Positions 15,461 to 62,470 of a DNA stretch of 64,000 nucleotides are shown here, piece after piece. This DNA is from a virus: positions 52,146 to 116,145 of the IMG/VR virus record IMGVR_UViG_3300025648_000015. One strand, 5' to 3'. How positions within the stretch are numbered: the first letter of the stretch is position 1; the number at the start of each line of letters is the position of its first letter. A program made the position numbers and the translations under genes. The notes beneath the pieces are model-generated. The model had not been told where the DNA came from, made no database searches, and worked only from the letters and a program-made list of their open reading frames with translations.

Positions 15461-15536
15461 GCCCTAGTAGCTCAACGGATAGAGCATCGGAGTTCTAACC
15501 CGCAGGTTGCAAGTTCGAGTCTTGCCTGGGGCACCA
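15461..15536 (+). tRNA. tRNA-Arg(TCT), CCA encoded
   Basis: GCCCTAG/CTGGGGC acceptor, GCTC/GAGC D stem with A20, T arm GCAAG-TTCGAGT-CTTGC, ACCA end; anticodon stem has two mismatches. Confidence 0.85.
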
Positions 15537-49008: not shown

Positions 49009-49692
49009 TTACCTTTCTATCGATGATTGATTTATATTTGCTTTCATACCACTATCTATTCCATCATTATATCCTGATGATGCTACAATTTTACGTTGAG
49101 TAGCAGGATGACGATCTAATTTTTGGAAATATTCTTCAATTGCATGTTGTTTATTTCTAACAACTAATGCAACTGATGTATTGTTTGTTTCATTAATAAC
49201 TTTTGTTTTTGATTCTCTTATACGTTCATTGATTGTTATACAATAACCGCCAAAGAAACCTTTAACCCAAGTTTTAGTATGTATTTTTTCTTTGCTATTC
49301 TTTTTAATTTTATTTAGCTTAATAAACATTTCATTGACCATGTCTAAAGATAAAATATTATATAATGTTAAACATAATTCAATATCACTCTTGTATCCAT
49401 AGATCATGCAATATTCTTCGCCTCGTAAAACTTTGCAAAAGTTATGCTTTGCAATTGAATTAAGCAATACACTCTTATCAATAGCATATGGTTTAGGTGT
49501 TTCAATACGTCTAGCAACAATATTTCCTTCACCAATATGATCATGAAGTTGAGCTTCTTCAATTTGATATTTGGTAATTAACTCTTGTGCTAATGATTGT
49601 GCTGAACTTACTTCACCAGGTTTGTCACTACTATCTGCAACGCGAAGTAGTTTCTGAACCTTAGAAATAATATCAGACAACTGCATAACCAT
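49009..49692 (-). CDS. DUF2786-domain protein
   Basis: II.KV.KLL..A.S....E...A...AQ.L..KY.I; F..G....I.ER; GY..G...G..A.I. Confidence 0.8.
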   Translation of the reverse strand: MVMQLSDIISKVQKLLRVADSSDKPGEVSSAQSLAQELITKYQIEEAQLHDHIGEGNIVARRIETPKPYAIDKSVLLNSIAKHNFCKVLRGEEYCMIYGYKSDIELCLTLYNILSLDMVNEMFIKLNKIKKNSKEKIHTKTWVKGFFGGYCITINERIRESKTKVINETNNTSVALVVRNKQHAIEEYFQKLDRHPATQRKIVASSGYNDGIDSGMKANINQSSIER

Positions 49693-49711
49693 AGTATTAC
49701 CTCCTTTCTTT

Positions 49712-49773
49712 TAGTCTAGCCTCATCGGTGTAGAGACAACTACCTTCTACATACGCCTCACGGCGTTTCGGCT
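49712..49773 (-). ncRNA. Hammerhead ribozyme HH1 (type II, U4C core variant)
   Basis: AGCC-GAAA-CGCC(GTGA)GGCG-TA^TGTAGA(AGGTAGTTGTC)TCTACA-CCGATGA-GGCT; loop TAGTT can pair with downstream GACTA. Confidence 0.85.
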
Positions 49774-49776
49774 TTA

Positions 49777-50019
49777 TTATAAAGCGTCTTTTAAATCACA
49801 GAATAACTTATGAAAATGATCCATTTGTTCTCCCATTGCATTGATTGCTTTATTAAACATATCTGATAAACTTTCATAAAAAGTGATATCAAGAGTGTTT
49901 TTGTTTTCGTTATAGATTTTAAACCCATTTAACAACTCATCTAAACGATAACCAATCGTAGAAATATTGTTGATAAGTTCGCTTACTTTCTCTAACTTTT
50001 CTTCATTACTTACTGTCAT
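49777..50019 (-). CDS. Hypothetical protein
   Basis: Stop 4 nt before HH1. Confidence 0.6.
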   Translation of the reverse strand: MTVSNEEKLEKVSELINNISTIGYRLDELLNGFKIYNENKNTLDITFYESLSDMFNKAINAMGEQMDHFHKLFCDLKDAL

Positions 50020-50260
50020 ATTACCTAACTTAAATATTTAATGCAACCAATTTAAAATTAATGTTTCATACTTACTATTTTACCTCCATAGGTTTATATT
50101 CACTACAATATGTCTCAAACTTGTTTTTACGAGTCCAAGATCCACATTCACGGCATTCTCCAGACTCTAAATCTTCAAATTCTGGATTCTGACTAATGTT
50201 CCATAAATGTGCTTCATATTCATGATCGCACCAACAATCTGGTTCATTCATATTTGCTCC

Positions 50261-50467
50261 TTACTTGATATTATCTAATGCATTATTAAGTATTTCAGTT
50301 ATTTCTTTTTCTTTATCTCCTGTTTCTGTATTTTGATCAGGAAAAACCCATTCATCAATATTAGGAATGTAAACAGTTTTACCTTTTTCAAATTTAGCAA
50401 AAGTAGTAGGCCAATCTATAAGCCAACCATTTTCTTCTGACCATTTTACTACACAATGATATTCCAT
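50261..50467 (-). CDS. Hypothetical protein
   Basis: Operonic. Confidence 0.6.
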   Translation of the reverse strand: MEYHCVVKWSEENGWLIDWPTTFAKFEKGKTVYIPNIDEWVFPDQNTETGDKEKEITEILNNALDNIK

Positions 50468-50792
50468 TATGTTTCCATTTCTATAATTATTTCTTCTAGT
50501 TGATTACAACGATCTAATAAATTAGATATAACATCTTTAGCTTCTGCTAATGTAGTTGGTTCTGTTAAACCAAAGTCATTTAATGTTAATTCTATCATTA
50601 TTAATTAAATCCATAATGCTCAAAGATTTGAGCTCTAGCATCTTCAAGTTCATTATTGAGGTCTTGCAATGTACGATTATCAATACTCTTATCATTACCA
50701 AACCAATCAATTAGATCTTGTCTAGTTACTTCATTCATTTTACTCCTTCTCTCTTATATTTGCTACTATGCGTAATGCTTCTGTTCCTTACT

Positions 50793-50853
50793 ATTAGCCT
50801 ATCTTATCAATGCATGGTGGCTAATCCATACAGACGCCTCCCGGCGTTTCGAT
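50793..50853 (-). ncRNA. Hammerhead ribozyme HH2 (type II, U3-A8 covariant core)
   Basis: ATC-GAAA-CGCC(GGGA)GGCG-TC^TGTATGG(ATTAGCCA)CCATGCA-TTGATAA-GAT; 7-bp pseudoknot ATTAGCC/GGCTAAT. Confidence 0.88.
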
Positions 50854-50859
50854 TCTTTA

Positions 50860-51042
50860 CTATTCTATTTCCTCAATAATTATATCATTGATAGTATTTT
50901 TAATAGCAAATCCATTGTGTTCTAACCATCCCAATGCTTCTTTTTCAATTACATCGTCATCTTCAGAGTCAGATGTAATCGTAGTTATGAGCACAGCATA
51001 GTCAAACACAAACTGTACATTATATATATATGTTTTACTCAT
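50860..51042 (-). CDS. Hypothetical protein (cassette gene between the direct repeats)
   Basis: SD AAGGAG lies inside the repeat. Confidence 0.65.
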   Translation of the reverse strand: MSKTYIYNVQFVFDYAVLITTITSDSEDDDVIEKEALGWLEHNGFAIKNTINDIIIEEIE

Positions 51043-51199
51043 TCTCCTTCTCTCTTATATTTGCTACTATGCGTAATGCTTCTGCAAATCCTTGAGCAAA
51101 TCCATTCTCAAAATCAGTTTGCTTAGCCATTGCTAAGTTAATGTGATGACGAGTTTCATTACTCAATTGATAAAAAGATTTGTCTAATTTTTTACCCAT
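51035..51199 (-). CDS. Hypothetical protein (54 aa, not in track)
   Basis: MGKKLDK...AEALRIVANIREKENE; its 3' end is the duplicated 41 bp. Confidence 0.6.
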   Translation of the reverse strand: MGKKLDKSFYQLSNETRHHINLAMAKQTDFENGFAQGFAEALRIVANIREKENE

Positions 51200-51201
51200 T
51201 A

Positions 51202-51618
51202 TTATTCCTTTGTTGTAACTAAACTATTAAGATAAATAAATACCTCAAAAGGTACTGGCTCTAGTTCCCAATTCCATACAACATCGTCTTCGTTGTAGTT
51301 TTGCCAGTCAACTTTATCATAGTTAACTACCTTAATACCAACAGTTTGGTCAATGTGATTTACAACAACTAACTTCCATGTATCACCATGAAGAGAAAGT
51401 CCGATACCATATCCAGTATCAGACATTACATCATCTTTAATCATTTCACTGAAGATAATACGGTTAAGGTATTCGTCATCACTCCAACGACCCTTGCCAC
51501 GTACTATAGCGTCAGCTACAACGTTTTCTAGATGACTAGCTCCCCAATGGGTATATAGATAGATAGAATGCTCTGATCCATATGTACCAATAAGTTGTAC
51601 TTGTCCACGGTCTCCCAT
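51202..51618 (-). CDS. Conserved phage hypothetical protein (MGDR...YLYTHW.G family)
   Basis: MGDRG, IYLYTHWG, RW.D..YL.RII, TGYGI. Confidence 0.7.
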   Translation of the reverse strand: MGDRGQVQLIGTYGSEHSIYLYTHWGASHLENVVADAIVRGKGRWSDDEYLNRIIFSEMIKDDVMSDTGYGIGLSLHGDTWKLVVVNHIDQTVGIKVVNYDKVDWQNYNEDDVVWNWELEPVPFEVFIYLNSLVTTKE

Positions 51619-51672
51619 GATTACCTACTTTCTTACTTGTTTGTTTATTTGTTTAACGTCTCCCGACGTAGT

Positions 51673-51713
51673 GCCTTGAGTAGGAGTCGAACCTACTCTA
51701 CGACCATCAAGGC
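51673..51713 (-). ncRNA. Anticodon-less tRNA mimic TL1, followed by a GGGA hairpin (51656-51669)
   Basis: GCCTT-GATGGTCGTA-GAGTAGG-TTCGACT-CCTACTC-AAGGC. Confidence 0.8.
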
Positions 51714-51719
51714 TACCAT

Positions 51720-52103
51720 TTACCACCAACTATCGTAATATATTTCCATATCTTGTCCAATAGCTTTCATAGCATCATCAATAAACTTAAGGTCAATTTC
51801 TCTATCTTCTGGTAAACTTTCACCAAAGAAAAAACCTTGAGTTACTGGGAGTTTTTCATGTATTACAGCATGTCTTAAATTAACAAGGTCTTGAAATGTT
51901 ACTCGAACTGGTTGACAGTTAAAAACACCTTCTCCACCTTTACTTTCATATAACTTTTCCATCCAACCTTGAATGTTAGGATGTTTACGCCATTGAGCAA
52001 TTAAAAAGACTTTATCTTCAGATTGTTCATGAGTCCAAACATAACTTAAATCTGTATTGTTTGGATGAGGCATAACAGCATATGCATATTGGTCTAATCC
52101 CAT
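51720..52103 (-). CDS. Conserved phage protein (MGLD.Y...WRK.....W...Y.SWW family)
   Basis: MGLDQY, WRKHPNIQGW, FNC, LP.T.GFFFG, YYDSWW. Confidence 0.75.
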   Translation of the reverse strand: MGLDQYAYAVMPHPNNTDLSYVWTHEQSEDKVFLIAQWRKHPNIQGWMEKLYESKGGEGVFNCQPVRVTFQDLVNLRHAVIHEKLPVTQGFFFGESLPEDREIDLKFIDDAMKAIGQDMEIYYDSWW

Positions 52104-52153
52104 TATGTTTCCTTTCTTACTTATTTATTTACTTGTTTGTGTCTCCCGACAGC

Positions 52154-52194
52154 ACCCCAAGATAGAATCGAACTATCTTACAACCATTTGGGGT
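52154..52194 (-). ncRNA. Anticodon-less tRNA mimic TL2, followed by a GGGA hairpin (52140-52151)
   Basis: ACCCCA-AATGGTTGTA-AGATAG-TTCGATT-CTATCT-TGGGGT. Confidence 0.8.
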
Positions 52195-52202
52195 TACCTT
52201 AG

Positions 52203-52859
52203 TTAGCTAGGCCAACTAATAGGAATTTCTTTACCATTAATAACAATGATTTTAGGTGTTTCCATTGCTTTATCAACAGCTTCAGATACTTCTTTAATTG
52301 TTTCCATCATAATAGATGGCATTGCTGCTAAACGTTGTTTCACCTCAGCTTCAACTGCTTGTTGCATTTCTGCATCAGACATAGTTGGAGCTAAAAACTC
52401 TTCCATAATTGGATCTTCTTCAATAGCATCTTCTGTTGTTACTGCTGCAGAAGTTGTTGCAGAAGGAACAGAAGTTTTATTTATATAACTTCCGTTAATA
52501 ATATAATATGGATAAAGTAAGGATTTCTTACCAGGAGCACCTTCATTTAACGATATAGACAACATCTTAGTAAGGAATTCTTCACGACCAGCTTCTTTGC
52601 TTGTGTGTTTAGAATTCACATCTTTGATGTAATCTTCAATTACAGCTTTAGCTGCTTTGTGATCAGTAAAGTAGAATCTACCAATTACACGACGAGCACG
52701 AGCATCTTCTGAATTGTACCACGTACAACGTACAAATACTTCAGAATAATAATCTCCGTGTTCTTTGTGTACAGTAAATGCTAGGTCTACAACATCACGA
52801 GTACGGTTGGAAGTCCAACCAGCACCATTAGCTTTAGCTACCCAAGTCATTTCTGACAT
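52203..52859 (-). CDS. Hypothetical protein
   Basis: Long ORF with A-rich leader. Confidence 0.7.
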   Translation of the reverse strand: MSEMTWVAKANGAGWTSNRTRDVVDLAFTVHKEHGDYYSEVFVRCTWYNSEDARARRVIGRFYFTDHKAAKAVIEDYIKDVNSKHTSKEAGREEFLTKMLSISLNEGAPGKKSLLYPYYIINGSYINKTSVPSATTSAAVTTEDAIEEDPIMEEFLAPTMSDAEMQQAVEAEVKQRLAAMPSIMMETIKEVSEAVDKAMETPKIIVINGKEIPISWPS

Positions 52860-52886
52860 ATTATCTCACTTTCTTTTTCTTACTAT

Positions 52887-52946
52887 TGACCTATCTCATC
52901 AGTGCATGGAGGTCATCCCATACATACCCCTCCCGGGGTTATCGAC
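52887..52946 (-). ncRNA. Hammerhead ribozyme HH3 (type II, GAUAA insertion variant)
   Basis: GTC-GATAA-CCCC(GGGA)GGGG-TA^TGTATGG(GATGACCT)CCATGCA-CTGATGA-GAT; pseudoknot TGACCT/AGGTCA. Confidence 0.88.
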
Positions 52947-52949
52947 TAA

Positions 52950-53108
52950 TTAATCGATTGACTGCAATGGTACACCAAAATAGTCATTAAGACCTTCTTG
53001 TACACCACAAGGTGAACAAATATCAGTCTTGTTATCAACCCTAGACAAAGCAGGATATCCTGTCCAAGATTCTTTACAAAGTGGACATATAAATGTTTTT
53101 ACTGTCAT
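52950..53108 (-). CDS. Small Zn-finger protein (CPLC...PALSR.DN.T.IC..CG; 52 aa, not in track)
   Basis: Common phage motif; ATGA overlap. Confidence 0.7.
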   Translation of the reverse strand: MTVKTFICPLCKESWTGYPALSRVDNKTDICSPCGVQEGLNDYFGVPLQSID

Positions 53109-53305
53109 GATTTTTCTATCATCCCTTCAGGCATTTTACAATAGCCATTTTCTATTAAATCCATAGCCATACGACCATAGTGTCCTTGTAGTTTCCAAGC
53201 CATACCATTGTCAATTAACTCTTGAAAAAGTTGGATAATTTCATTACCATCAAGTTCATCTTGTTCATAACTTATTATTTTATTTGTTAAATCATTAATA
53301 ATCAT
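53105..53305 (-). CDS. Conserved phage protein (FQ.LID.G.AW.LQG.YGR.A family)
   Basis: Motif recognisable. Confidence 0.7.
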   Translation of the reverse strand: MIINDLTNKIISYEQDELDGNEIIQLFQELIDNGMAWKLQGHYGRMAMDLIENGYCKMPEGMIEKS

Positions 53306-53694
53306 TATTTATCTTCTTCAAGTTGCCAATTAAATTTATCATCTTGTACTTGATTTAATTCATCATACAATGATTGAGCCATTTTTGCATGTTCTTCAGG
53401 CGTAGAAGGTACTTGTGACCTAAAATCAACACCAAATACAACGCCTACGTTACTAGCAAATGTAATAAGGTTTTGTAAAACCTCAGTACCTGCTTTAACA
53501 GCTTGGTCAAATGTATGTTTGAAGTCATCTGACTCTACATAACTATTAAACTCTGAAGGAAGTTCACCAGTTACATATTGACGATAAGCTTCAATGGTTG
53601 TCTGAATTGTGATTTGCATTTTAATACACATCATCAAATTATCAACTTCATTTTTAATGAGTTGTAATTTTAATTCATCTGACATGTTGTCCAT
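53305..53694 (-). CDS. Hypothetical protein
   Basis: Leader follows HH4. Confidence 0.65.
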   Translation of the reverse strand: MDNMSDELKLQLIKNEVDNLMMCIKMQITIQTTIEAYRQYVTGELPSEFNSYVESDDFKHTFDQAVKAGTEVLQNLITFASNVGVVFGVDFRSQVPSTPEEHAKMAQSLYDELNQVQDDKFNWQLEEDK

Positions 53695-53723
53695 CTTACT
53701 CTCTTTCTTGTTTAACTATTATC

Positions 53724-53784
53724 TGACTTGTCTCATCAGTACCCAAGTTGTCATCTTAGGTATACCCCTCACGGGGTTATCGAC
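53724..53784 (-). ncRNA. Hammerhead ribozyme HH4 (type II, GAUAA insertion variant)
   Basis: GTC-GATAA-CCCC(GTGA)GGGG-TA^TACCTAAG(ATGACAA)CTTGGGTA-CTGATGA-GAC; pseudoknot TGAC/GTCA. Confidence 0.88.
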
Positions 53785-54182
53785 TAACGATAATGTCTAT
53801 ATATTTTTGTATCATAAGATTCATCAAAATCTGGTTGTTCAGGAGATGGTGCTCCTTGCCATTCAGATAAAGTCTTAAGAAACCATGTTTCTGCTGCTGC
53901 ATCATCTTTACCATAAAAAACATAGCATAATGTTAACACAGCATCAACTGCTTCTTTAGCTATCCAACTACTTGTAAACTCCCTGGTCAAAAGTATTTCT
54001 TTCTTTTTTGTACCAGGAATAGGACGCATTACTTGTAATATAGCATTATGATTCATAAGATTACTTTGTACGCCTGCTTTTAATGATAAATATAAATTAA
54101 CATTAGTTCTATAATAAACAGTAGTCTTACAATTCCATGATACTTCATCACGAGAACGACGCCAATTAACTTGTCTTGACAT
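53784..54182 (-). CDS. Hypothetical protein
   Basis: Its TAG stop overlaps the first base of HH4. Confidence 0.65.
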   Translation of the reverse strand: MSRQVNWRRSRDEVSWNCKTTVYYRTNVNLYLSLKAGVQSNLMNHNAILQVMRPIPGTKKKEILLTREFTSSWIAKEAVDAVLTLCYVFYGKDDAAAETWFLKTLSEWQGAPSPEQPDFDESYDTKIYRHYR

Positions 54183-54430
54183 GTTCTTCCTTTATTTTAA
54201 TTATAACCAATTGCTAAAATCTTTTAATAATTGATGTATTTCTCCAGTTGTATAACCATCTTCAATGTTATTAACTTCTTCACCGTTAACGTTATATATA
54301 CCTGAATCTAAATTCCCTGCTAGTTTCTTTAATAAATCAAGAAACAATTCTTGAAATTTAGGAAGTTGGTCTGGAGTATCGAATGATATTTCGATCTTCA
54401 TCTTGTTTCCTTGTTGCTCACCGCTTACTC

Positions 54431-54772
54431 TCATAATTCCTCCTCATGGTTATTACTGCATTCACAATCTGATGCGTGAAAAGATTTATCACTAAATTCT
54501 TCTCCAAATAAATACTTAGCATGCTTTTGAATAATCTTAAGAAGAGTTGCCATGTTAATGTTTACAATCTCTGATATGCTTTTGATTGATTCACCAACAA
54601 TTGGTATTTTATCTTCATCAACTTCATGCCAATGCTCAACCGCACCATGTAACCACATAGTAGGTTCACCCATATCCATGAATAGTGTCTTAATTTCACC
54701 TATCATATTACCATAGTTGATTCTGTCACTAGTTTCATGGTCTAAGGCAGCAGTGAATTGCTGTTCATCCAT
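54431..54772 (-). CDS. Hypothetical protein
   Basis: SD AAGGAG. Confidence 0.65.
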   Translation of the reverse strand: MDEQQFTAALDHETSDRINYGNMIGEIKTLFMDMGEPTMWLHGAVEHWHEVDEDKIPIVGESIKSISEIVNINMATLLKIIQKHAKYLFGEEFSDKSFHASDCECSNNHEEEL

Positions 54773-54799
54773 AATTACTCCTTACTTGTTTTGTTTGTT

Positions 54800-55320
54800 T
54801 AAGTGGGCATTTTAACGTCATACCCAGGACGGAGAGTTACAAAAGCTCACTCACAAGGCTAGTGGTTACCTTCACACCACTCAGGTCGTTGGCTCACCTA
54901 TACCACCAACAGGTCGCTAATTAAGGTTTAGACTGACCTCCATGAGCTTCCCCTCATGATGAGTATGTAGTACGATACAAGCGTGTGGGTGCGTTTGAGT
55001 CTGCACCACAATTAGACTCGGTCCCATATAACCGATAAAAGTTATATGGGATTGCCACGTTTTTTGGGTCAGTGACCTAGACCTCATAGTGTGTTGTTAA
55101 GGATGTTACTTCCTACCTAAGCTTCCCCTTTAGGCTGGGTTTGTGAATACAAGACTTGCAACTAGGCACTCTGGATTAATACAACATCCAATCTGGCGGG
55201 TTGACATAGCTGGCATCACAGATCAATAAAGCCCCCTGGCCTATCCAGAAGGGCTATGGAGATGCAACAACAAGAAGGAAAAGCACTCTCCATAACCCAT
55301 CTCAATAGGCTATGTAGAGA
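54800..55320 (-). ncRNA. Large structured ncRNA candidate (tandem pseudoknots, anti-SD loop)
   Basis: ~550-bp ORF-free gap dense in hairpins and loop-to-downstream pairings. Confidence 0.6.
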
Positions 55321-55344
55321 CTTCATTCTTGTTAATAATTGATA

Positions 55345-55643
55345 TTAAAGAATCTCTTCTGCCGAGGCAATAATCTTCTTTAATTCACTTGGAAAATATA
55401 CTCCGTTATTCTCAAGAGATATTTGAAGCTCTTTAAGAATATCAACAAAATTACGAATCATCTCAATTAAGAGATTACGTTGCATTTCCAGTGATTCAGC
55501 CTTTTCATTGTAAAGGCCAACCAATTTATTAACCTTACCAAAAGTCTCAACTAGTTTCAATGCACGATTGCGCATTGCTTCAAGGTCTTCACTTTCAGTA
55601 AACTTGTCACGAATATTCTGCAACTGTTCTTCTGTTACTATCA
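55345..55643 (-). CDS. Hypothetical coiled-coil protein
   Basis: Probable start MIVTEE after the CAAGTAAGAAAG leader (start coordinate approximate). Confidence 0.6.
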
Positions 55644-55711
55644 TTTTATTTACTTTCTTACTTGTAGCCACACTTAATGGTAGTGACCTTCACCATGGGT
55701 AAAACAATTTA

Positions 55712-56086
55712 CTATTCACTATCTTTTGGCATGTAATGATCTTGATGGCCACAACGACCTTCGTTTTCATCACATAAAGGGTGGTGTTGATCATGAAGCA
55801 TGAATGGTGCACCAAGAACTTTAACAGCTTCTTTTTGCATTTCTTCATAAAACTCATTTAACTGATTAATTGCAAGCCCAAGCCCAAGTGGGAATACTTT
55901 TGTAATAAGATTTAAGTCATCTTCTGACCTATCCTCATCTAATAGCATTGCTGCAATTTTAGTAAATGGTTCCATGATTGTACCCATCTCAACGCCCCAA
56001 TCTTTAATACGATTGAGGTAATCAGCATGAGCAATACGTGCCTCTGCTGCTTCGTCAAGTGTTAGGTCGAGATCAAACTCTTCCAT
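55712..56086 (-). CDS. Hypothetical protein
   Basis: SD AAGGAG. Confidence 0.65.
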   Translation of the reverse strand: MEEFDLDLTLDEAAEARIAHADYLNRIKDWGVEMGTIMEPFTKIAAMLLDEDRSEDDLNLITKVFPLGLGLAINQLNEFYEEMQKEAVKVLGAPFMLHDQHHPLCDENEGRCGHQDHYMPKDSE

Positions 56087-56150
56087 ATTACTCCTTTTAT
56101 TGCTTACTTACAGGACCAATTACGGCCCACTGCATACCAAATAGTATGCA

Positions 56151-56216
56151 TGGCACCTGAGGGTCGCTTGATAGACCCCCAGGTCTCTGAGTTTATATAA
56201 CGTTACTCAGGGAACG
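56151..56216 (-). ncRNA. H-type pseudoknot followed by an 11-bp minihelix ending in GCCA
   Basis: CGTT(CCCTGAGT)AACG-TTATATAA-ACTCAG; ACCTGGGGGTC(TATCAAGC)GACCCTCAGGT-GCCA. Confidence 0.6.
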
Positions 56217-56221
56217 CGTGA

Positions 56222-57718
56222 TTAAGACTTGCCAAGCAAAGCAGAACGAATAGGACCGGCAGGCTTATTAATAAGCTTACCTTTCTTAAACATTGATACT
56301 GCTTCTTCAACACTAGGAATCATAATGATCTTGTGTTTCTTGACGAGTTTAGCACACTGAATGATTATTTGATCATTCTGTCCACTACCCATAGATGTAA
56401 CTTGGCCGTCACTGACCCAGACAATGTCTTCGCCATGCTTACGACGACGAATTGCCCACGTCAATGCAGTACCGTCAACACCATTGTTCATACCACCGAT
56501 GTCACCGGTGTCTCGAACACGCCAACCACGATCAGCGAGTAGCCAAGCGTTGGGGCTGTCGCCACCACAATCACTATATGCCATAATGACTGCGGCAGGA
56601 GCTGCCTCAACAATCTCTTCGATGTCTGACTGTTTCAAATTCATAGAACCTGATATGTCAATAACAACGATGCCACCCTTAACTTTGATTTTCTGTCCAA
56701 AGATCCTACGTTCTGGATCTGTAAGCAGACGTGATGGGTAAGAGACACGACGACCTGATTGCATACCACGCTTTTTACGGCGCATATAACCTTTAACCTC
56801 AACGGTTAGTGGCTTGTCATCAGCCCAGACTAACTTACCAAATTCGCCATTGTCATAGTCAAATTCGAAATCATCTGGCATATCATCAGTGTTGAGTGTA
56901 ACAGGTTGATCACCAAGTGTATTCTTGTCAGGATCAAACTTATCAGGATCACCATAGTTAGCTGCACGCTGCTCTTCTTTCTTGCTGTGTATATCCTTAA
57001 TGTCTTTAGGGGCTTTGTACCCAGAAGACACATAGTCAGCAATATCAGAAGCAGCATACAGAGTGTGACGAAAACCAGTTGGGATATTAAAATTACTGTT
57101 AAACCTTACTGGAATGGTATCACCTAACTCAGATGCTGTGCCATTGAAATTGGTTTTCATTGACTTATTGAGTTGACGCAGTCGTTGACTCCATTCAGGT
57201 CTAACGGAACGAATTCCGCTAGCAAAAGAGTCGAAACTCTTAGTGCTATGATTCTGAACAGTGAATTGAACTGCTGCATCCCAAGATCGCATATCACCAG
57301 CTGTAGCCAACCGCTTACCAAAAGTCTTTTCAGCTCCGGTAGGCTCGTGATCCAACTGCTTGACTTTAGCAAACTGTTCTGTAATCGCATTGATGCGAGC
57401 TTGCTCAGCAACACGTAATACATCGGCTGTAATACCGTTGTTATTGTATGCTTTAGCAATACCAGAATAGATTGATGAGTCAAGAGGAGTAACACGAGCT
57501 TCGATAAGCTTCTCAAGCTGTAGACGCTGTGAATGGCTATCCCCCGAAAGAGGAATAGCCATTATACCAGCAATGAAGTCTACTTTAGCTCCGAAGTCAC
57601 CGACAGTTGGAACAATTTCCCAATTGATTGGATCCTTAACATCCTCACGGAATGAAGTAATAACGTTTGGTAACGGCATTACTTCATCTTCAAGGTAGCT
57701 TGGAGTCACTTCACTCAT
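56222..57718 (-). CDS. vWA-domain protein (MoxR partner)
   Basis: MIDAS VVIDISGSM, SDG; adjacent to the AAA+ gene. Confidence 0.8.
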   Translation of the reverse strand: MSEVTPSYLEDEVMPLPNVITSFREDVKDPINWEIVPTVGDFGAKVDFIAGIMAIPLSGDSHSQRLQLEKLIEARVTPLDSSIYSGIAKAYNNNGITADVLRVAEQARINAITEQFAKVKQLDHEPTGAEKTFGKRLATAGDMRSWDAAVQFTVQNHSTKSFDSFASGIRSVRPEWSQRLRQLNKSMKTNFNGTASELGDTIPVRFNSNFNIPTGFRHTLYAASDIADYVSSGYKAPKDIKDIHSKKEEQRAANYGDPDKFDPDKNTLGDQPVTLNTDDMPDDFEFDYDNGEFGKLVWADDKPLTVEVKGYMRRKKRGMQSGRRVSYPSRLLTDPERRIFGQKIKVKGGIVVIDISGSMNLKQSDIEEIVEAAPAAVIMAYSDCGGDSPNAWLLADRGWRVRDTGDIGGMNNGVDGTALTWAIRRRKHGEDIVWVSDGQVTSMGSGQNDQIIIQCAKLVKKHKIIMIPSVEEAVSMFKKGKLINKPAGPIRSALLGKS

Positions 57719-58476
57719 GATAGTGTGAACTCAGGAGTGAGTGTACCAATCTTGAGAGCATCGATGATTGGATCAGCCATTTTGCCGAACACCATACGAG
57801 CTGCACGCTCTACGCCAAAGCCAGGAGCAGAACGAAGCTGCTCGAAAGCCTTGAATGAACGTAGAGAAGCACGTTGGCCAGGTCGGCCTGCAACAATAAC
57901 TGCTGCAAGCTGACGCAATTCCACAGGCAATGCTGCGATCAAAGCTGCTGGATGAGCAGCATCAATCTTGATTGCAATTGGGAATCTGTCCTTAAGTGCA
58001 GTTGGCAACTCGTCCATGTCTTCCAAGTTAGTGGTCATCACAGCCGAGAACCCTGGATTTGGAGTAAACAACTCTCCAGTGTAGGGGTGCTTGAATGATG
58101 ATGATTCAACACTGTCTAGGAATGCAAGCAAAGTTGACTGTACGTCACCACCAGCTTTGTCGATCTCGTCAACAACGAGTCGAGCACCAGTAGTACCATT
58201 GCCGATCCAGGAGCGTAATGCAGCACCTGGGACAAAGGTGAATCCACCAACCTCGTTAGGCATAACTGAACCTGATACGTCAGCATTTGTCATATCCTCT
58301 GAGCAGATAAGACGCTCGGAGCCAGCTTCATTGATGCCGAAGTTGAGGCCAGAGTATGTCTTACCAGTGCCTGGAGGGCCGTAAAGGATGACACGGTCTA
58401 CACCGGCCGCCAGCACGTCCTCCAAGTCCTTGTAGCATTGAGGGACAGGGATGCCTTGGTATGTTGCTTCACTCAT
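57715..58476 (-). CDS. MoxR/CbbQ-type AAA+ ATPase
   Basis: GPPGTGKT, LVVDEID, TTN, L..ALKDRF, S.R. Confidence 0.88.
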   Translation of the reverse strand: MSEATYQGIPVPQCYKDLEDVLAAGVDRVILYGPPGTGKTYSGLNFGINEAGSERLICSEDMTNADVSGSVMPNEVGGFTFVPGAALRSWIGNGTTGARLVVDEIDKAGGDVQSTLLAFLDSVESSSFKHPYTGELFTPNPGFSAVMTTNLEDMDELPTALKDRFPIAIKIDAAHPAALIAALPVELRQLAAVIVAGRPGQRASLRSFKAFEQLRSAPGFGVERAARMVFGKMADPIIDALKIGTLTPEFTLS

Positions 58477-58555
58477 GATTTACTTACTTTCTTCTTGTTT
58501 ATTTTAGTTTGTAGTGCTTCCTTAGCACCAGGGCAGTCACTTATGTGACTCCGGC

Positions 58556-58599
58556 ACTGCAGGTGGGAATCGAACCCACAACATCCTCCATGCTGCAGT
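58556..58599 (-). ncRNA. Anticodon-less tRNA mimic TL3
   Basis: ACTGCAG-CAT(GGAGG)ATG-TT-GTGGG-TTCGATT-CCCAC-CTGCAGT-GCC. Confidence 0.8.
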
Positions 58600-58621
58600 C
58601 CCCCTTATTTAGGGAAATATA

Positions 58622-59095
58622 CTACTTTATTGCATGTACAGTCATTTTGCCATTGTGACGGTCAAAGTTAACTTTAACTTTCTTGTAACCCTTGACTCGT
58701 GCCTCTTTACGCAATTTAGTTTCAATTGCTTGAGCATTCATCTGATGGATAGGCAAGATAGCAGCTAATTCCTTATAACCAATAACATGACTATTTCCAT
58801 CAAGGATTTCGTCAAGCCACCAATTCAATTCAGACCATTTAATTATTACTGATGGTTTTGTATAAGGACGACGCAATGATTTGCTACGTGCATTCATTGA
58901 ATTAACCTTAGTTGGCGGTTTAGCTTTGGTAGCTACGGCTGCTGTTCCCTTACTTGCAGGTTTAACAGAACTATCAAATGATTCAATCAATTCGATAACC
59001 TGAATAACTTGACTTCGGGTAGCAGGACGCCCAAGAACTGTGTCAGTTAACTCTAACGCAGTCTTGATCACCTGGCTCATCTTACTGTTGGACAT
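58622..59095 (-). CDS. Basic hypothetical protein
   Basis: SD AGGAGG. Confidence 0.7.
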   Translation of the reverse strand: MSNSKMSQVIKTALELTDTVLGRPATRSQVIQVIELIESFDSSVKPASKGTAAVATKAKPPTKVNSMNARSKSLRRPYTKPSVIIKWSELNWWLDEILDGNSHVIGYKELAAILPIHQMNAQAIETKLRKEARVKGYKKVKVNFDRHNGKMTVHAIK

Positions 59096-59142
59096 TATGT
59101 CCTCCTTCTTTGTTTGTTGTTTTTGTTGTGCCTCCCGGCAGC

Positions 59143-59183
59143 ACCCCAGGCAAGAGTCGAACTTACCTTACGACCATCGGGGA
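59143..59183 (-). ncRNA. Anticodon-less tRNA mimic TL4, followed by a GGGA hairpin
   Basis: TCCCC-GATGGTCGTA-AGGTAAG-TTCGACT-CTTGCCT-GGGGT-GC-TGCC(GGGA)GGCA. Confidence 0.8.
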
Positions 59184-59190
59184 TACCGTA

Positions 59191-59718
59191 TTACTTACAT
59201 ATCTTCAAATCTGGACCCCATTCGGGAACCAAACTGTGATTACGTTGGTAATACCAGACAGCCACAAGTGATTGTTGATCACCAGTTGCTGCCTGTGGTG
59301 TAGCAGGCAATCCATGTATGTACCCTCTAGCATAATTCCATATGGATGGAATAAACTGATACCAACCAGCCGCCTTAGTGTGTATCTCAACACTAGTTAA
59401 GTGGTTTCTAGACTCATGGTATCGAATACAGGCAAACTGTGCTTGTATATGGATAGGCAATTGTCTTGTTGGATCAGTTGCAGAAGGCCATGCGGCTGTT
59501 ACATCTGTGGACATTGTATTCCATTGCATCAGAGCAGGAACCTCGTGCTTAACCACAATTGGCATGGTTTTCTCATACCAGTGCAGATTAGCCTTAGTTA
59601 CTGTCTGAACCTGATGTGGAAGCGCGGGCGGGCGTGCAGCAAATACTTGCCCCGAAATTCCTAAACTTCCCATCAATAGCAATGAAGTACATATACACAG
59701 CTTACGCAGTGTTTCCAT
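59191..59718 (-). CDS. Secreted lysozyme-like transglycosylase (Rpf/SceD-like)
   Basis: Signal peptide; CIR.HES......A.G.YQF..S.W......P..A....Q...A. Confidence 0.8.
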   Translation of the reverse strand: METLRKLCICTSLLLMGSLGISGQVFAARPPALPHQVQTVTKANLHWYEKTMPIVVKHEVPALMQWNTMSTDVTAAWPSATDPTRQLPIHIQAQFACIRYHESRNHLTSVEIHTKAAGWYQFIPSIWNYARGYIHGLPATPQAATGDQQSLVAVWYYQRNHSLVPEWGPDLKICK

Positions 59719-59817
59719 GTACCTTGCTCCTTTCTTATTTGGAGTGATTCTTACTAACTTCTTTATTAATCACCCCATCGGCCCCCTCCCCTCATCGGGA
59801 GGAGACCTGTGCAATGA

Positions 59818-60219
59818 TTAAAACTGGCTTACACCATCACGCTCTGGATTGTACAAATCAATATGCTGATTCTGTACAAGATGGAAGAAAGAGTTCGCGA
59901 TCTTATGTTCCGTACAGCTATTAACTGACTGGAACGGACCGTGCTTAACCTCTGAACGGATCACTTTCTTAGTGTCCTGAAACAGAGATTTTGCGGTGAC
60001 CTCTTTCAACCTGGGAGTACTAGATATAAGTTGCCAGACACCCGCGGGGGAGACTTCCATCTTAACCACCGCAAAGGTATCTGACAAATCAAAACAACCA
60101 ACGTGTATATGATGACGGCCAAAGTACTCCAGCCACTCATCAAAGACATAGCCCAAAGGACTATCTTCTACACGTACTTGATTGTACTTCCAGCACGCGC
60201 TGTGAAGTGTCATTAGCAT
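59818..60219 (-). CDS. Hypothetical protein
   Basis: A-rich leader. Confidence 0.55.
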   Translation of the reverse strand: MLMTLHSACWKYNQVRVEDSPLGYVFDEWLEYFGRHHIHVGCFDLSDTFAVVKMEVSPAGVWQLISSTPRLKEVTAKSLFQDTKKVIRSEVKHGPFQSVNSCTEHKIANSFFHLVQNQHIDLYNPERDGVSQF

Positions 60220-60380
60220 AACACTACCTTACTTTCTTGTTATTTACTTAGCTTGCATACCCCCAAGCCAGGGAAGGATATATCTGTACTCCCGTACATA
60301 GATAACCCTGTAGCCACCACCATACCTTTATATGATGATGACTACACAGCCACCTATAAACTGCATGTATACCTAAGGTA

Positions 60381-60441
60381 TCCACACCACTTTACACCAC
60401 ATCGCTCCACATCAAACCACTATGCTCCATATGAGTACCAT
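60381..60441. repeat. Helically phased CCAC/CCAT repeats (iteron-like)
   Basis: CCAC ends at 60390, 60400, 60410, 60420; CCAT ends at 60430 and 60441. Confidence 0.6.
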
Positions 60442-60613
60442 TATAGTGGTAAAGAGAGTGCCTTAGATATGTGTAAACATGTCTCAAAATATGCCCATTT
60501 TTATAATATATAGGAAATAAACGGCCACATAGCATAATAAGCTATTACCTTACTATGATCCGATCTTATGCCCTAAGTAAATAAGCTATTATATGTATAT
60601 CGGATCGATATAA

Positions 60614-60629
60614 TGTTCCACGTGGAACA
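60614..60629. promoter_or_regulatory. parS site
   Basis: TGTTCCACGTGGAACA, perfect palindrome matching the bacterial parS consensus. Confidence 0.85.
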
Positions 60630-60713
60630 TACTGACTAACATATGCGGAGATCCAATACACCCGTATATTATTTCCTTACTAGGGTATTAGCTTATTAGC
60701 ATAATAGCCTATA

Positions 60714-60729
60714 CGTTCCACGTGAAACA
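60714..60729. promoter_or_regulatory. parS site (second copy)
   Basis: CGTTCCACGTGAAACA, exactly 100 bp from the first. Confidence 0.8.
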
Positions 60730-60742
60730 TATCGAACTTGAA

Positions 60743-61051
60743 TTAGAAGCTTAGCTCTATTCCATCCAGAGCCCACTCTGATACTAATGGGCATATGGTA
60801 TAGGTAAGTTTGATGGGCTTAGATGAGTAGTTTGTTTCCCCGACGACATGCGCGGAGATAGTATCTTCCTCATCATTAATAACCCACTTGGTAGGTGCTA
60901 TACCATAGAACTCAGTCATACTAATGACTGCCATTTCCACGGATGGAAAACTATCTTGTATAACACCACACCTGGTCTTAGCCTTATGGACAATCCTATC
61001 CCATAGAGTAGGCCGGTCAATCCAAGTTATCACAAATCGCTCTTCGATCAT
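60743..61051 (-). CDS. Hypothetical protein
   Basis: SD AAAGGA after TL5. Confidence 0.6.
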   Translation of the reverse strand: MIEERFVITWIDRPTLWDRIVHKAKTRCGVIQDSFPSVEMAVISMTEFYGIAPTKWVINDEEDTISAHVVGETNYSSKPIKLTYTICPLVSEWALDGIELSF

Positions 61052-61099
61052 GATTATATTCCTTTCTCTTACTTATATTTAGTTTCCCCATAAGGGAGC

Positions 61100-61144
61100 A
61101 CCTCGGAGGGGAATCGAACCCCTCCAAGCCCACCAGGGCGAGGT
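61100..61144 (-). ncRNA. Anticodon-less tRNA mimic TL5
   Basis: ACCTC-GCCC(TGGT)GGGC-TT-GGAGGGG-TTCGATT-CCCCTCC-GAGGT-GC. Confidence 0.82.
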
Positions 61145-61164
61145 TACCTACTACTTACAACCTA

Positions 61165-61932
61165 TTACAGGTTGTTCTTGATGCTCTTGAATGTCTCAAG
61201 GAATAGCATCTGCTGGAACAGCTTCTTCTGGTCCTCAGCCATCTCTTCCACAGTCTCCTGTGAGAGCTTGTTGAGTGCTTCAGAGTACGTGTTGATAACA
61301 CCGCTGGCCTGAACGTGGTTCAGAACGGTGTCGTACACTACAGGTGAACCGAGAGCGATTGCACGGTTCTTGGTAGCACCTGTCTCTGGAAGCATGTAGA
61401 ACTTCTGCTGTGCCAGATCCTTAACGTACAGCTTGATGCGTAGCTCAGCACCGTTCAGCTTCTCGTACTGCTCAATTGCAGTTACGATGCCACTGGTTAC
61501 GTACTGGCGCTGACGCAGCACCTCGTAGTACTGACGACCCTTCTTGTCCGTCAACAGTCCAGAGTTGATAATGAACTGTGTACGGGAACGGTTGTACTTA
61601 CCCGAGTACGCCATAGATGGAGTAACGATGTCGCTTGGCTCGATGCGAGTAGCAACTTCTACAAGCTTACGACCGTACTCGAGGTTCTGGTTAGTGAACA
61701 CATCGAATACACGTCCCATGCTGTAGTCGTTGTCTTGCTTAGCCATGCTGATAGCGTTGCCAGCAATCTGGTCGTAGGTGAATCCACCCAAGATCAGATA
61801 CTGAACAGCGTCCACCAACATCGTGTGCTCTGCTGACGACTCCACTGATGTGTCAACGAAGGCTGCACGTAATACTTCTTGTGCCTCCTCTGCTGTCATT
61901 GATACAGTGTTGGATACATTGAATTCTGACAT
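61165..61932 (-). CDS. Hypothetical protein with GC-richer, biased codon usage
   Basis: 255 aa; 31/60 GC in line 61201. Confidence 0.75.
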   Translation of the reverse strand: MSEFNVSNTVSMTAEEAQEVLRAAFVDTSVESSAEHTMLVDAVQYLILGGFTYDQIAGNAISMAKQDNDYSMGRVFDVFTNQNLEYGRKLVEVATRIEPSDIVTPSMAYSGKYNRSRTQFIINSGLLTDKKGRQYYEVLRQRQYVTSGIVTAIEQYEKLNGAELRIKLYVKDLAQQKFYMLPETGATKNRAIALGSPVVYDTVLNHVQASGVINTYSEALNKLSQETVEEMAEDQKKLFQQMLFLETFKSIKNNL

Positions 61933-62024
61933 ATTGTCTTCCTTCTTTTCTTATTTATTTGTTTCCTCAGTTCCGCTGAGTTACCGGTACTGCTGTTACT
62001 CCTGCATCCCTGCAGTGGTAACGT

Positions 62025-62089
62025 CCCTAGGTCAGATTTGACCCTGACCCTCCGTTGGACTGGAGTCTAGGTGGATAGCCTAGATAGGG
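62025..62089 (-). ncRNA. Perfect four-way-junction cloverleaf followed by a GGGA hairpin
   Basis: CCCTA-[TCTAGG/CCTAGA]-[CTCC/GGAG]-[GGTCAG/CTGACC]-TAGGG with no unpaired junction bases. Confidence 0.65.
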
Positions 62090-62096
62090 TAACCCG

Positions 62097-62378
62097 TTAG
62101 TCTGTCAAGACTACGAAGTTAGGCTTGATATCCTCTACCCTGACTTCGTTATAATCGTTGCATATGACGACCTCGATATCACCTGTGCCACTGATAACAG
62201 TGACACAAAGATCTGCCCCGAGTAGACCAGGTATAAACTTCCTATCTGGATCTTTGCGTACCGAGTTCCATCTGTTTTGTACAGCCAACAGAAGTGAACC
62301 TCCATACAGCTCTCTAGGTTGAGGCTCAGGTGTATCTGACCAGATCATTGTTGACCAGGCTAGAATTGTCTCTGACAT
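62097..62378 (-). CDS. Hypothetical protein
   Basis: CAAGTAAGAAAGGA leader. Confidence 0.65.
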   Translation of the reverse strand: MSETILAWSTMIWSDTPEPQPRELYGGSLLLAVQNRWNSVRKDPDRKFIPGLLGADLCVTVISGTGDIEVVICNDYNEVRVEDIKPNFVVLTD

Positions 62379-62470
62379 ATATTTCCTTTCTTACTTGTTA
62401 TTTACTGCAGATGTCTCACGACATGTAGCCACCACCGAGTTACCCCGGTGATGCCAGCCTGTCTAGAGGC

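Follow-up and report, generated by a model that had tools for sequence, protein, structure and literature searches.

A minus-strand gene block with structured intergenic gaps

We analysed the final 64 kb (hereafter, the window) of the 116-kb viral record IMGVR_UViG_3300025648_000015 of IMG/VR, which represents a lake phage. On the minus strand, from about 62.9 down to 49 kb, it carries some 30 genes, mostly small and of unknown function; their products include an AAA_5 ATPase, the 498-aa protein adjoining it and a DUF2786 protein. The large terminase gene lies on the opposite strand, just past this block. Many of the minus-strand genes abut or overlap, and the longer gaps between them are occupied by compact structured elements that we call modules: type II hammerhead ribozymes, tRNA-like elements (TLEs) reduced to the acceptor stem and T arm, minihelices and a four-way junction (Table 1). 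Here we ask what these modules are and what they may do to the transcripts of the block.

A first-pass annotation of the window had described punctuation of the block gene by gene. We found instead that the modules delimit groups of one to five genes. The layout that it had proposed, i.e., a stop codon followed by a structured element, an A-rich leader and a start codon, holds for all modules. The leader is common to them and contains a weak Shine-Dalgarno sequence; apart from the copy listed in Table 1, related copies lie at 52117-52140, 55646-55669, 61939-61962 and 62379-62402.

Neither the window nor two further TLE-rich loci have a cultured relative among 50,697 phage records (searched with megablast and blastn), and a search with a 255-aa protein found no related viral loci. 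A metagenome scan yielded three DNA contigs that were used as relatives. In the comparisons below, G001 (comprising L004 and L032), L256 and L257 are syntenic with the window, and G002 (L005) is more distant.

Table 1. Structured modules and leader of the minus-strand block. Hairpin coordinates were obtained by counting within the sequence; R2 and R3 are the covariance models described in the text.
Position	Strand	Feature	Predicted cleavage	Support
49704..49773	-	Hammerhead, U4C core variant	49752/49751	R3 E 9e-14; descriptor
50787..50853	-	Hammerhead, compensated U3-A8 core pair, 7-bp loop I/tail pseudoknot	50833/50832	R3 E 3e-14; descriptor
51621..51644	-	A-rich leader copy ending in weak Shine-Dalgarno sequence		direct-repeat families D1, D2, D8
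51656..51717	-	TLE (51670-51717) and directly adjoining 5-bp GGGA-loop hairpin (51656-51669)		R2 E 5e-17
52141..52198	-	TLE (52151-52198) and GGGA-loop hairpin (52141-52150)		R2 E 2e-14
52878..52946	-	Hammerhead, U13a insertion in GAAA strand, 6-bp pseudoknot	52925/52924	R3 E 2e-15
53716..53784	-	Hammerhead, U13a insertion	53763/53762	R3 E 1e-11
56110..56210	-	Four-hairpin module; the second is an 11-bp minihelix ending GCCA (56151-56184), next hairpin immediately after		z -4.0
58512..58603	-	TLE (58553-58603), then two hairpins		R2 E 2e-4
59130..59187	-	TLE (59140-59187) and GGGA-loop hairpin (59130-59139)		R2 E 1e-13
59745..59807	-	11-bp hairpin module, then second hairpin		z -5.5
61087..61148	-	TLE (61097-61148), small linker hairpin kept, then hairpin (61087-61096)		R2 E 5e-8
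61965..62089	-	Four-way junction (62025-62089), then two hairpins		z -2.8
62411..62453	-	10-bp GNRA-loop hairpin, GCU, GUGA-loop hairpin		z -3.4; identical in G001

Four type II hammerheads

A descriptor that demands the whole type II order, including all three stems, finds exactly four hammerheads in the window, all on the minus strand and all intergenic, and none in 100 dinucleotide shuffles. The covariance model R3, built from six hammerheads of related contigs, retrieves the same four at 51-65 bits (E 2e-15 to 1e-11), and its next-best match in the window has an E value of 0.7. The four hammerheads of the first-pass annotation are thus upheld. Each unit consists of the 3' strand of stem II, GAAA, a stem III hairpin with a GNRA loop, a U and a non-G base, followed by the stem I hairpin, CUGAUGA, the 5' strand of stem II and a tail complementary to loop I. 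Stem II is open, and stems I and III are closed by loops in all four. The pseudoknots between loop I and the 3' tail span 4-7 bp, and their sequences differ among copies and among orthologs. In the copy at 53716..53784, the first base of stem II is the G of the upstream stop codon. The copy upstream of the DUF2786 gene (49009-49692) has hammerheads in the same slot in L004 and L005.

The catalytic core (CUGAUGA, GAAA, the A15.1-U16.1 pair and a non-G base at the cleavage site) is present in four of four copies, with one deviation in each: U3-A8 in one copy, U4C in another and U13a in the remaining two. We verified the four predicted cut sites base by base. None of the copies reaches the gathering threshold of RF02276 in Rfam (37 bits); the Rfam Hammerhead_II model reports only 52885-52947, below threshold at 24 bits, and the other three are absent at E up to 10. 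Rfam reports no more than this because each copy departs from the core consensus. In a related contig, L071, one hammerhead scores 49 bits and thus passes the Rfam threshold. All three deviations are documented among natural hammerheads: U3-A8 is compensatory and self-cleavage has been demonstrated in vitro, U4C lowers activity in vitro while leaving enough in vivo, and the extra U of U13a should project away from the core (Perreault et al. 2011, PMC3088659). We conclude that the four units belong to the type II hammerheads, and their sequences predict that they cleave themselves.

Five tRNA mimics without anticodon arm

The covariance model R2, built from 56 elements found in foreign viral contigs only, finds exactly five TLEs in the window (E 5e-17 to 2e-4). 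They are the ones that the first-pass annotation had picked out as anticodon-less tRNA mimics. A genuine tRNA-Arg scores just 15.7 bits with this model. Conversely, the tRNA calls of ARAGORN and Rfam in the window are limited to the tRNA-Arg at 15461 and include no TLE.

The TLEs share a simple architecture: an acceptor stem of 6-7 bp, a linker of 10-15 nt that always contains UGG, a T stem of 5 bp and a perfect T loop. This loop has the canonical seven nucleotides, with the consensus invariant in five of five copies, and the acceptor and T stems form a stack of about 12 bp. The D and anticodon arms of the cloverleaf are not present in any of the five, their place between the two stems being taken by the linker. 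Correspondingly, the element at 58553-58603 matches the Rfam tRNA model at 23.9 bits through acceptor and T arm only, with the other two arms deleted. At the 3' end, the acceptor strand is followed by a purine and then CU or CC; CCA follows in none of the five. In the TLEs of the window clade, a 3-bp helix between leader and trailer lengthens the acceptor stem past a bulged A. The hairpin after the element, for which a GNRA loop had often been described, has such a loop in only three of the five TLE gaps.

The relatives preserve these elements in different ways. The TLE at 51670-51717 has an identical counterpart in the same slot of L004, that at 52151-52198 shows compensatory T-stem changes in L004 and L256, and the G001 counterpart of that at 61097-61148 has two extra small hairpins that bring it nearer to a cloverleaf. 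Two other origins were considered and rejected: the copies differ throughout their stems, which excludes a MITE-like repeat, and the presence of both acceptor strands together with five co-oriented copies excludes attP fragments. As far as sequence and predicted structure can tell, the five elements are confirmed as anticodon-less mimics, about 48 nt long, of the top half of a tRNA.

Minihelices, a four-way junction and other modules

The CCA-ended minihelix at 56151 and the four-way junction at 62025 fold as the first-pass annotation described. The hairpins flanking the minihelix show compensatory changes in L004 and L256, and the junction itself differs from its G001 ortholog by three compensatory pair changes; it has no match in Rfam at E up to 10. 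The module at 62411..62453 has a 3' flank (GCU and a hairpin) with the same layout as the TLE gaps. In G001, the module at 59745..59807 is doubled around an inserted small open reading frame, and one of the two copies has a wholly different stem with the same shape and flanks.

At its gathering thresholds, Rfam reports nothing in the 49.7-62.5 kb region; at E up to 10, it returns only sub-threshold hammerhead, tRNA and mascRNA matches, a tmRNA end and microRNA noise. Twister, twister-sister, pistol, hatchet, HDV-like, RAGATH, DUF3800, skipping-rope and Y RNA assignments are unsupported for any module by the same search. We also checked the alternative that genes have their own promoters and that the modules act as terminators. 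A scan for sigma-70-type promoters and intrinsic terminators, by which phage-specific promoters are undetectable, found no such sites in the module gaps and no excess over shuffled sequences. A role as terminators was rejected, since the hairpins have no U tract after them and the module gaps hold zero terminator-like matches.

A family of TLEs in phages and mobile elements

A search with a pattern of linker and T loop gathered TLEs from more than 100 viral contigs of very different base composition, mostly with the same architecture and unrelated stem sequences; the conservation of the linker in this set is partly imposed by the pattern. The reduced architecture recurs more than 130 times. 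Among 56 unrelated copies, 88% of the stem cells are paired, versus 55% after shuffling, and double changes occur at all 15 pairs; sliding the pairing partner abolishes this signal. The T stem is paired in 100% of the cells and the acceptor stem in 85%. The stems contain 25 G.U pairs and seven A.C pairs, and this excess implies selection on pairing in the RNA of this strand.

The placement of the TLEs was assessed for 103 copies at unrelated loci. A stop codon on the same strand lies at most 25 nt upstream of 57% of the copies, versus 6% of random sites, a start codon on the same strand follows within 80 nt in 48% versus 16%, and 80% are co-oriented with the surrounding genes, versus 50%. In many loci there are three to seven copies, which invariably share a strand. 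A hairpin follows the TLE in 32% of the cases in other phages, versus 20%, a modest enrichment. In some lineages of unrelated phages, only 13-23 nt separate the end of the TLE from the start codon, and these contain no Shine-Dalgarno sequence. In one unrelated phage group (L121, L094, L038, L091 and L105), the same short C/U-rich word stands after every TLE, and an A/C-rich leader of about 15 nt then runs to the start codon, again with no Shine-Dalgarno sequence.

The pattern is also present in bacterial genomes, including those of Streptomyces. In L202, L165, L217 and other Streptomyces loci, near-identical TLEs lie beside genes of GntR/UTRA regulators and DUF6284 or DUF2637 genes, neighbours that are characteristic of actinomycete integrative conjugative elements. 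In L151, the TLE comes after an ArdC-like anti-restriction gene. The TLE is absent from Rfam 15. We found no description in the literature of TLE punctuation in phages, nor of TLEs that share slots with ribozymes, and a 2023 catalogue of viral structured RNAs treats tRNA-like candidates in general terms only. The TLE thus appears to be a widespread family of phages and mobile elements that has seemingly escaped description.

Different modules occupy the same slot in related phages

In G001, hammerheads and TLEs occupy the slots that they have in the window, with altered stems and pseudoknots. The more distant L005 differs in module type. The slot after the vWA-like gene holds the minihelix module in the window and L004 and a hammerhead in L005; the slot after the homolog of the 52950 gene holds a hammerhead in the window and L004 and a TLE in L005. 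The slot behind the 127-aa gene holds a TLE in the window and L004 and, in L005, an aberrant tRNA followed by terminators. This tRNA (L005:6437-6526) is a 90-nt ARAGORN call of undetermined identity, with a four-base anticodon and an ACCA end, and the terminators are two strong intrinsic ones. In still more distant relatives, genuine tRNAs stand about 20 nt before a Shine-Dalgarno sequence and a start codon in the same operon. The two main module types also occur together elsewhere: L071 has four hammerheads and three TLEs within 10 kb, and two unrelated contigs (L066 and L067) each carry a hammerhead and a TLE on one strand, about 1.2 kb apart or less.

Two observations concern genes gained or lost together with a module. 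G001 and L256 lack the gene at 58622-59095 together with one TLE (compare window 58477-59190 with L032:7859-7980 and L256:1782-1921). The single TLE that these relatives have at this position is a hybrid, its 5' half resembling the upstream copy of the window and its 3' flank the downstream copy, which fits a gain or loss through recombination between TLEs, as judged from the sequences. Elsewhere, a perfect direct repeat of 41 bp (50743-50783 and 51044-51084) surrounds exactly one gene, of 60 aa, and one hammerhead; its downstream copy does not code for protein and duplicates the end of an upstream gene. This suggests the recent insertion or duplication of a cassette made of a gene and its ribozyme.

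A proposed model of transcript punctuation

We consider it fairly probable that the modules are interchangeable processing sites at which polycistronic RNA is cut at the boundaries of gene blocks. From the structures, the selection that acts on them and their placement, all of which we observe, we infer that cuts are made, by which enzymes and with what effect on stability. In this model, transcription of the minus-strand genes would produce one long polycistronic RNA or a small number of them. Portable cis-acting modules would mark the limits of blocks of one to five genes, and each would bring about a single endonucleolytic cut with a stable structure on either side. At four boundaries, this cut would be self-cleavage by a type II hammerhead, which would leave the stem III hairpin and a 2',3'-cyclic phosphate at the 3' end of the upstream mRNA; the downstream mRNA would have a 5'-OH and start right at the stem I hairpin.

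At five other boundaries, the 48-nt tRNA mimic would draw the host enzymes that process tRNA ends. Its acceptor stem would be stacked on a canonical T arm, and the UGG of the linker could stand in for the D loop at the elbow. The cut would most likely be made by RNase Z/BN directly after the discriminator, with RNase P possibly acting at the 5' side. RNase Z/BN is favoured over RNase P because CCA does not follow any of the five TLEs and because the leader pairs with the trailer in the window clade; for the latter reason, a single cut is also preferred over excision on both sides. This would leave a tRNA-like cap at the 3' end of the upstream mRNA, with the downstream mRNA starting 2 nt before a hairpin. 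Plain minihelices of 10-12 bp and the four-way junction may play the same role at the other boundaries.

RNase E or J gains entry poorly to mRNAs that have a hairpin at their 5' terminus and a 5'-OH, and exonucleases are blocked by structure at the 3' end. The outcome of such cuts would be mRNAs protected at their ends, with a 5' leader independent of the upstream context, a natural counterpart of the insulators that have been engineered from ribozymes and tRNAs.

Judged on position, strand, conservation of structure and slot exchange, with all of which it agrees, cis-acting punctuation by RNA processing is partly supported. The first-pass annotation had placed cuts on either side of the tRNA-like helix; this part gives way to a single RNase Z/BN-type cut. 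Several points weigh against the model. With the helix between leader and trailer, the TLE would not be a good substrate for bacterial RNase P. The modest enrichment of hairpins after the TLEs of other phages means that a cut between two clamps is not a general picture. Our search of the 116-kb record found no gene encoding a CCA-adding enzyme, RtcB or an RNase Z-like metallo-beta-lactamase, and the model consequently depends on the host. Finally, two long non-coding stretches of the block (54773-55344 and 60220-60742, described below) may split the region into several transcription units, and there could be internal promoters inside them.

In a broader form, which we advance tentatively as possible rather than probable, the TLE would be a distinct, very widespread and uncatalogued class of RNA of phages and mobile elements that forms, with hammerheads, minihelices and real tRNAs, a general and modular toolkit for the punctuation of mRNA. 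Mobile cassettes would bring their own processing site and could be expressed from any polycistronic context, and the choice between self-cleavage and host enzymes would set the chemistry of the ends and, through it, the lifetime of the mRNA.

Other explanations for the modules

The same elements could work as uncleaved structures of 5' untranslated regions, insulating each cistron from upstream folding or acting as ribosome standby sites or translation enhancers, in which case the TLE would act through its shape or through a bound host protein. The short distance between TLE and start codon in several unrelated phages, with no Shine-Dalgarno sequence to fill it, speaks for this explanation, and so does the A-rich leader that stands after every module of the window. 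Yet the slots are shared with hammerheads, which are made for cutting, equivalent slots of relatives contain real tRNAs, which always undergo processing, and the conserved features of the TLE are exactly those that tRNA-end enzymes read. We regard this explanation as unlikely.

The primary role of the modules might instead be genomic, as junctions for the recombinational exchange of cassettes, in the manner of the T4-type cassettes of promoter and stem-loop, and their role in RNA would then be secondary. Three cassette indels bounded by duplicated modules (58622-59095 with its TLE, the 41-bp repeat and the small open reading frame of G001) are what one would expect of such junctions. Against this, the copies have loops and shape in common, not stem sequences, and thus offer little homology for recombination; their covariation and the excess of G.U over A.C pairs reveal selection on RNA pairing; and all copies are co-oriented with transcription. 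A mainly genomic role is quite unlikely.

We find it very unlikely that the elements are decaying and functionless remnants of phage tRNA genes and ribozymes. The deviations from the core consensus in all four hammerheads, the intermediate form of G001 that is nearer to a cloverleaf and the full tRNAs in the operon of relatives could all be read in this way. But remnants would not be expected to keep an invariant T loop and stems maintained by compensatory changes across high-GC and low-GC phages, nor to show the same reduced architecture at so many places, nor to have hammerhead positions conserved among three relatives despite differing sequences. That the TLEs are decoys, released or embedded, which titrate proteins binding the acceptor and T arm (modification enzymes, EF-Tu, toxins or defence nucleases) is highly improbable: many copies per genome, precise mimicry of elbow and acceptor and occurrence in both phages and conjugative elements would suit a decoy, but the TLE lacks a CCA end and the anticodon arm, which is the target of most known tRNA-directed defence nucleases, and a decoy has no need of strict placement between stop and start codons.

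Relation to known systems of RNA processing

Punctuation by RNA processing at intergenic modules has several precedents. In the early RNA of phage T7, RNase III cuts a polycistronic transcript at intercistronic structures and leaves mRNA ends protected by hairpins. In engineered insulators, a ribozyme and a hairpin standardise the 5' leader, and polycistrons spaced by tRNAs have been built as well. The T7 system relies on another nuclease and another class of structure, and the insulators are artificial, whereas the layout of the window is natural and mixed.

The hammerhead half of the model is not new. Clustered hammerheads that flank genes in prophages have been proposed to cut long phage transcripts into gene-length mRNAs (Perreault et al. 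2011, PMC3088659). Those of the window resemble them closely: they are of type II, have the pseudoknot between loop I and the 3' tail, are clustered and flank single genes or short blocks, and they show the same core variants (U3-A8, U4C and U13a). They differ in that the window copies are all core variants, with none at the Rfam threshold, and in that the prophage study did not describe tRNA-like elements or minihelices in equivalent slots. The newer part is the TLE.

Its closest parallels are organellar and nuclear. In plant mitochondria, t-elements, i.e., non-canonical tRNA-like structures with a conserved T arm and even plain acceptor-like stem-loops, direct cuts by RNase Z and RNase P at mRNA ends, and other genes have real tRNAs in this role (Forner et al. 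2007, PMC1920247). Unlike the modules of the window, t-elements are few per genome, mostly fuller cloverleaves and not interchangeable with ribozymes; the phage TLE is a uniform top-half mimic of 45-50 nt with many copies, found in phages and in bacterial mobile elements. In mascRNA of MALAT1 and menRNA of NEAT1 (RF01684), a tRNA-like structure within a long RNA lets the tRNA-end enzymes define the flanking ends, as we suppose for the TLE. These are eukaryotic and nuclear, belong to long non-coding RNAs and keep an anticodon-like stem. The TLE of the window at 58553-58603 matches this family weakly and scores 20.8 bits against a threshold of 42.5, with no kinship in sequence beyond the likeness to tRNA.

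If the cuts were confirmed, phages would use an organelle-style tRNA punctuation in which ribozymes and stripped-down tRNA mimics are swappable parts. This would give a role to many hammerheads of bacteria and phages whose function is open, explain a large set of unannotated tRNA-like matches in viral metagenomes and improve phage annotation. It would also provide compact natural insulator parts (45-70 nt) for multigene expression from a single transcript. With R2, R3 and the predicted cut sites, the idea can be tested directly.

Other non-coding stretches

The gap at 60220-60742 (523 nt) of the operon contains two copies of a 14-bp palindrome, one perfect and one mismatched, along with other repeats, and is conserved only patchily in G001. 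Its possible roles are those of an operator, a promoter or an origin. The gaps of L008 and L015, which are more distant relatives, have neither TLEs nor hammerheads; their place is taken by long hairpins rich in GC and by a GC-rich palindromic motif that recurs, possibly a different system of punctuation or of promoters. The non-coding stretch at 54773-55344 (minus strand, 572 nt) has no match in Rfam. About 290 nt of it are nearly invariant across four relatives, in which the flanking proteins are only 45-76% identical, and its consensus fold comprises 107 pairs, of which eight have changed in a compensatory way. This stretch may encode a large structured RNA.

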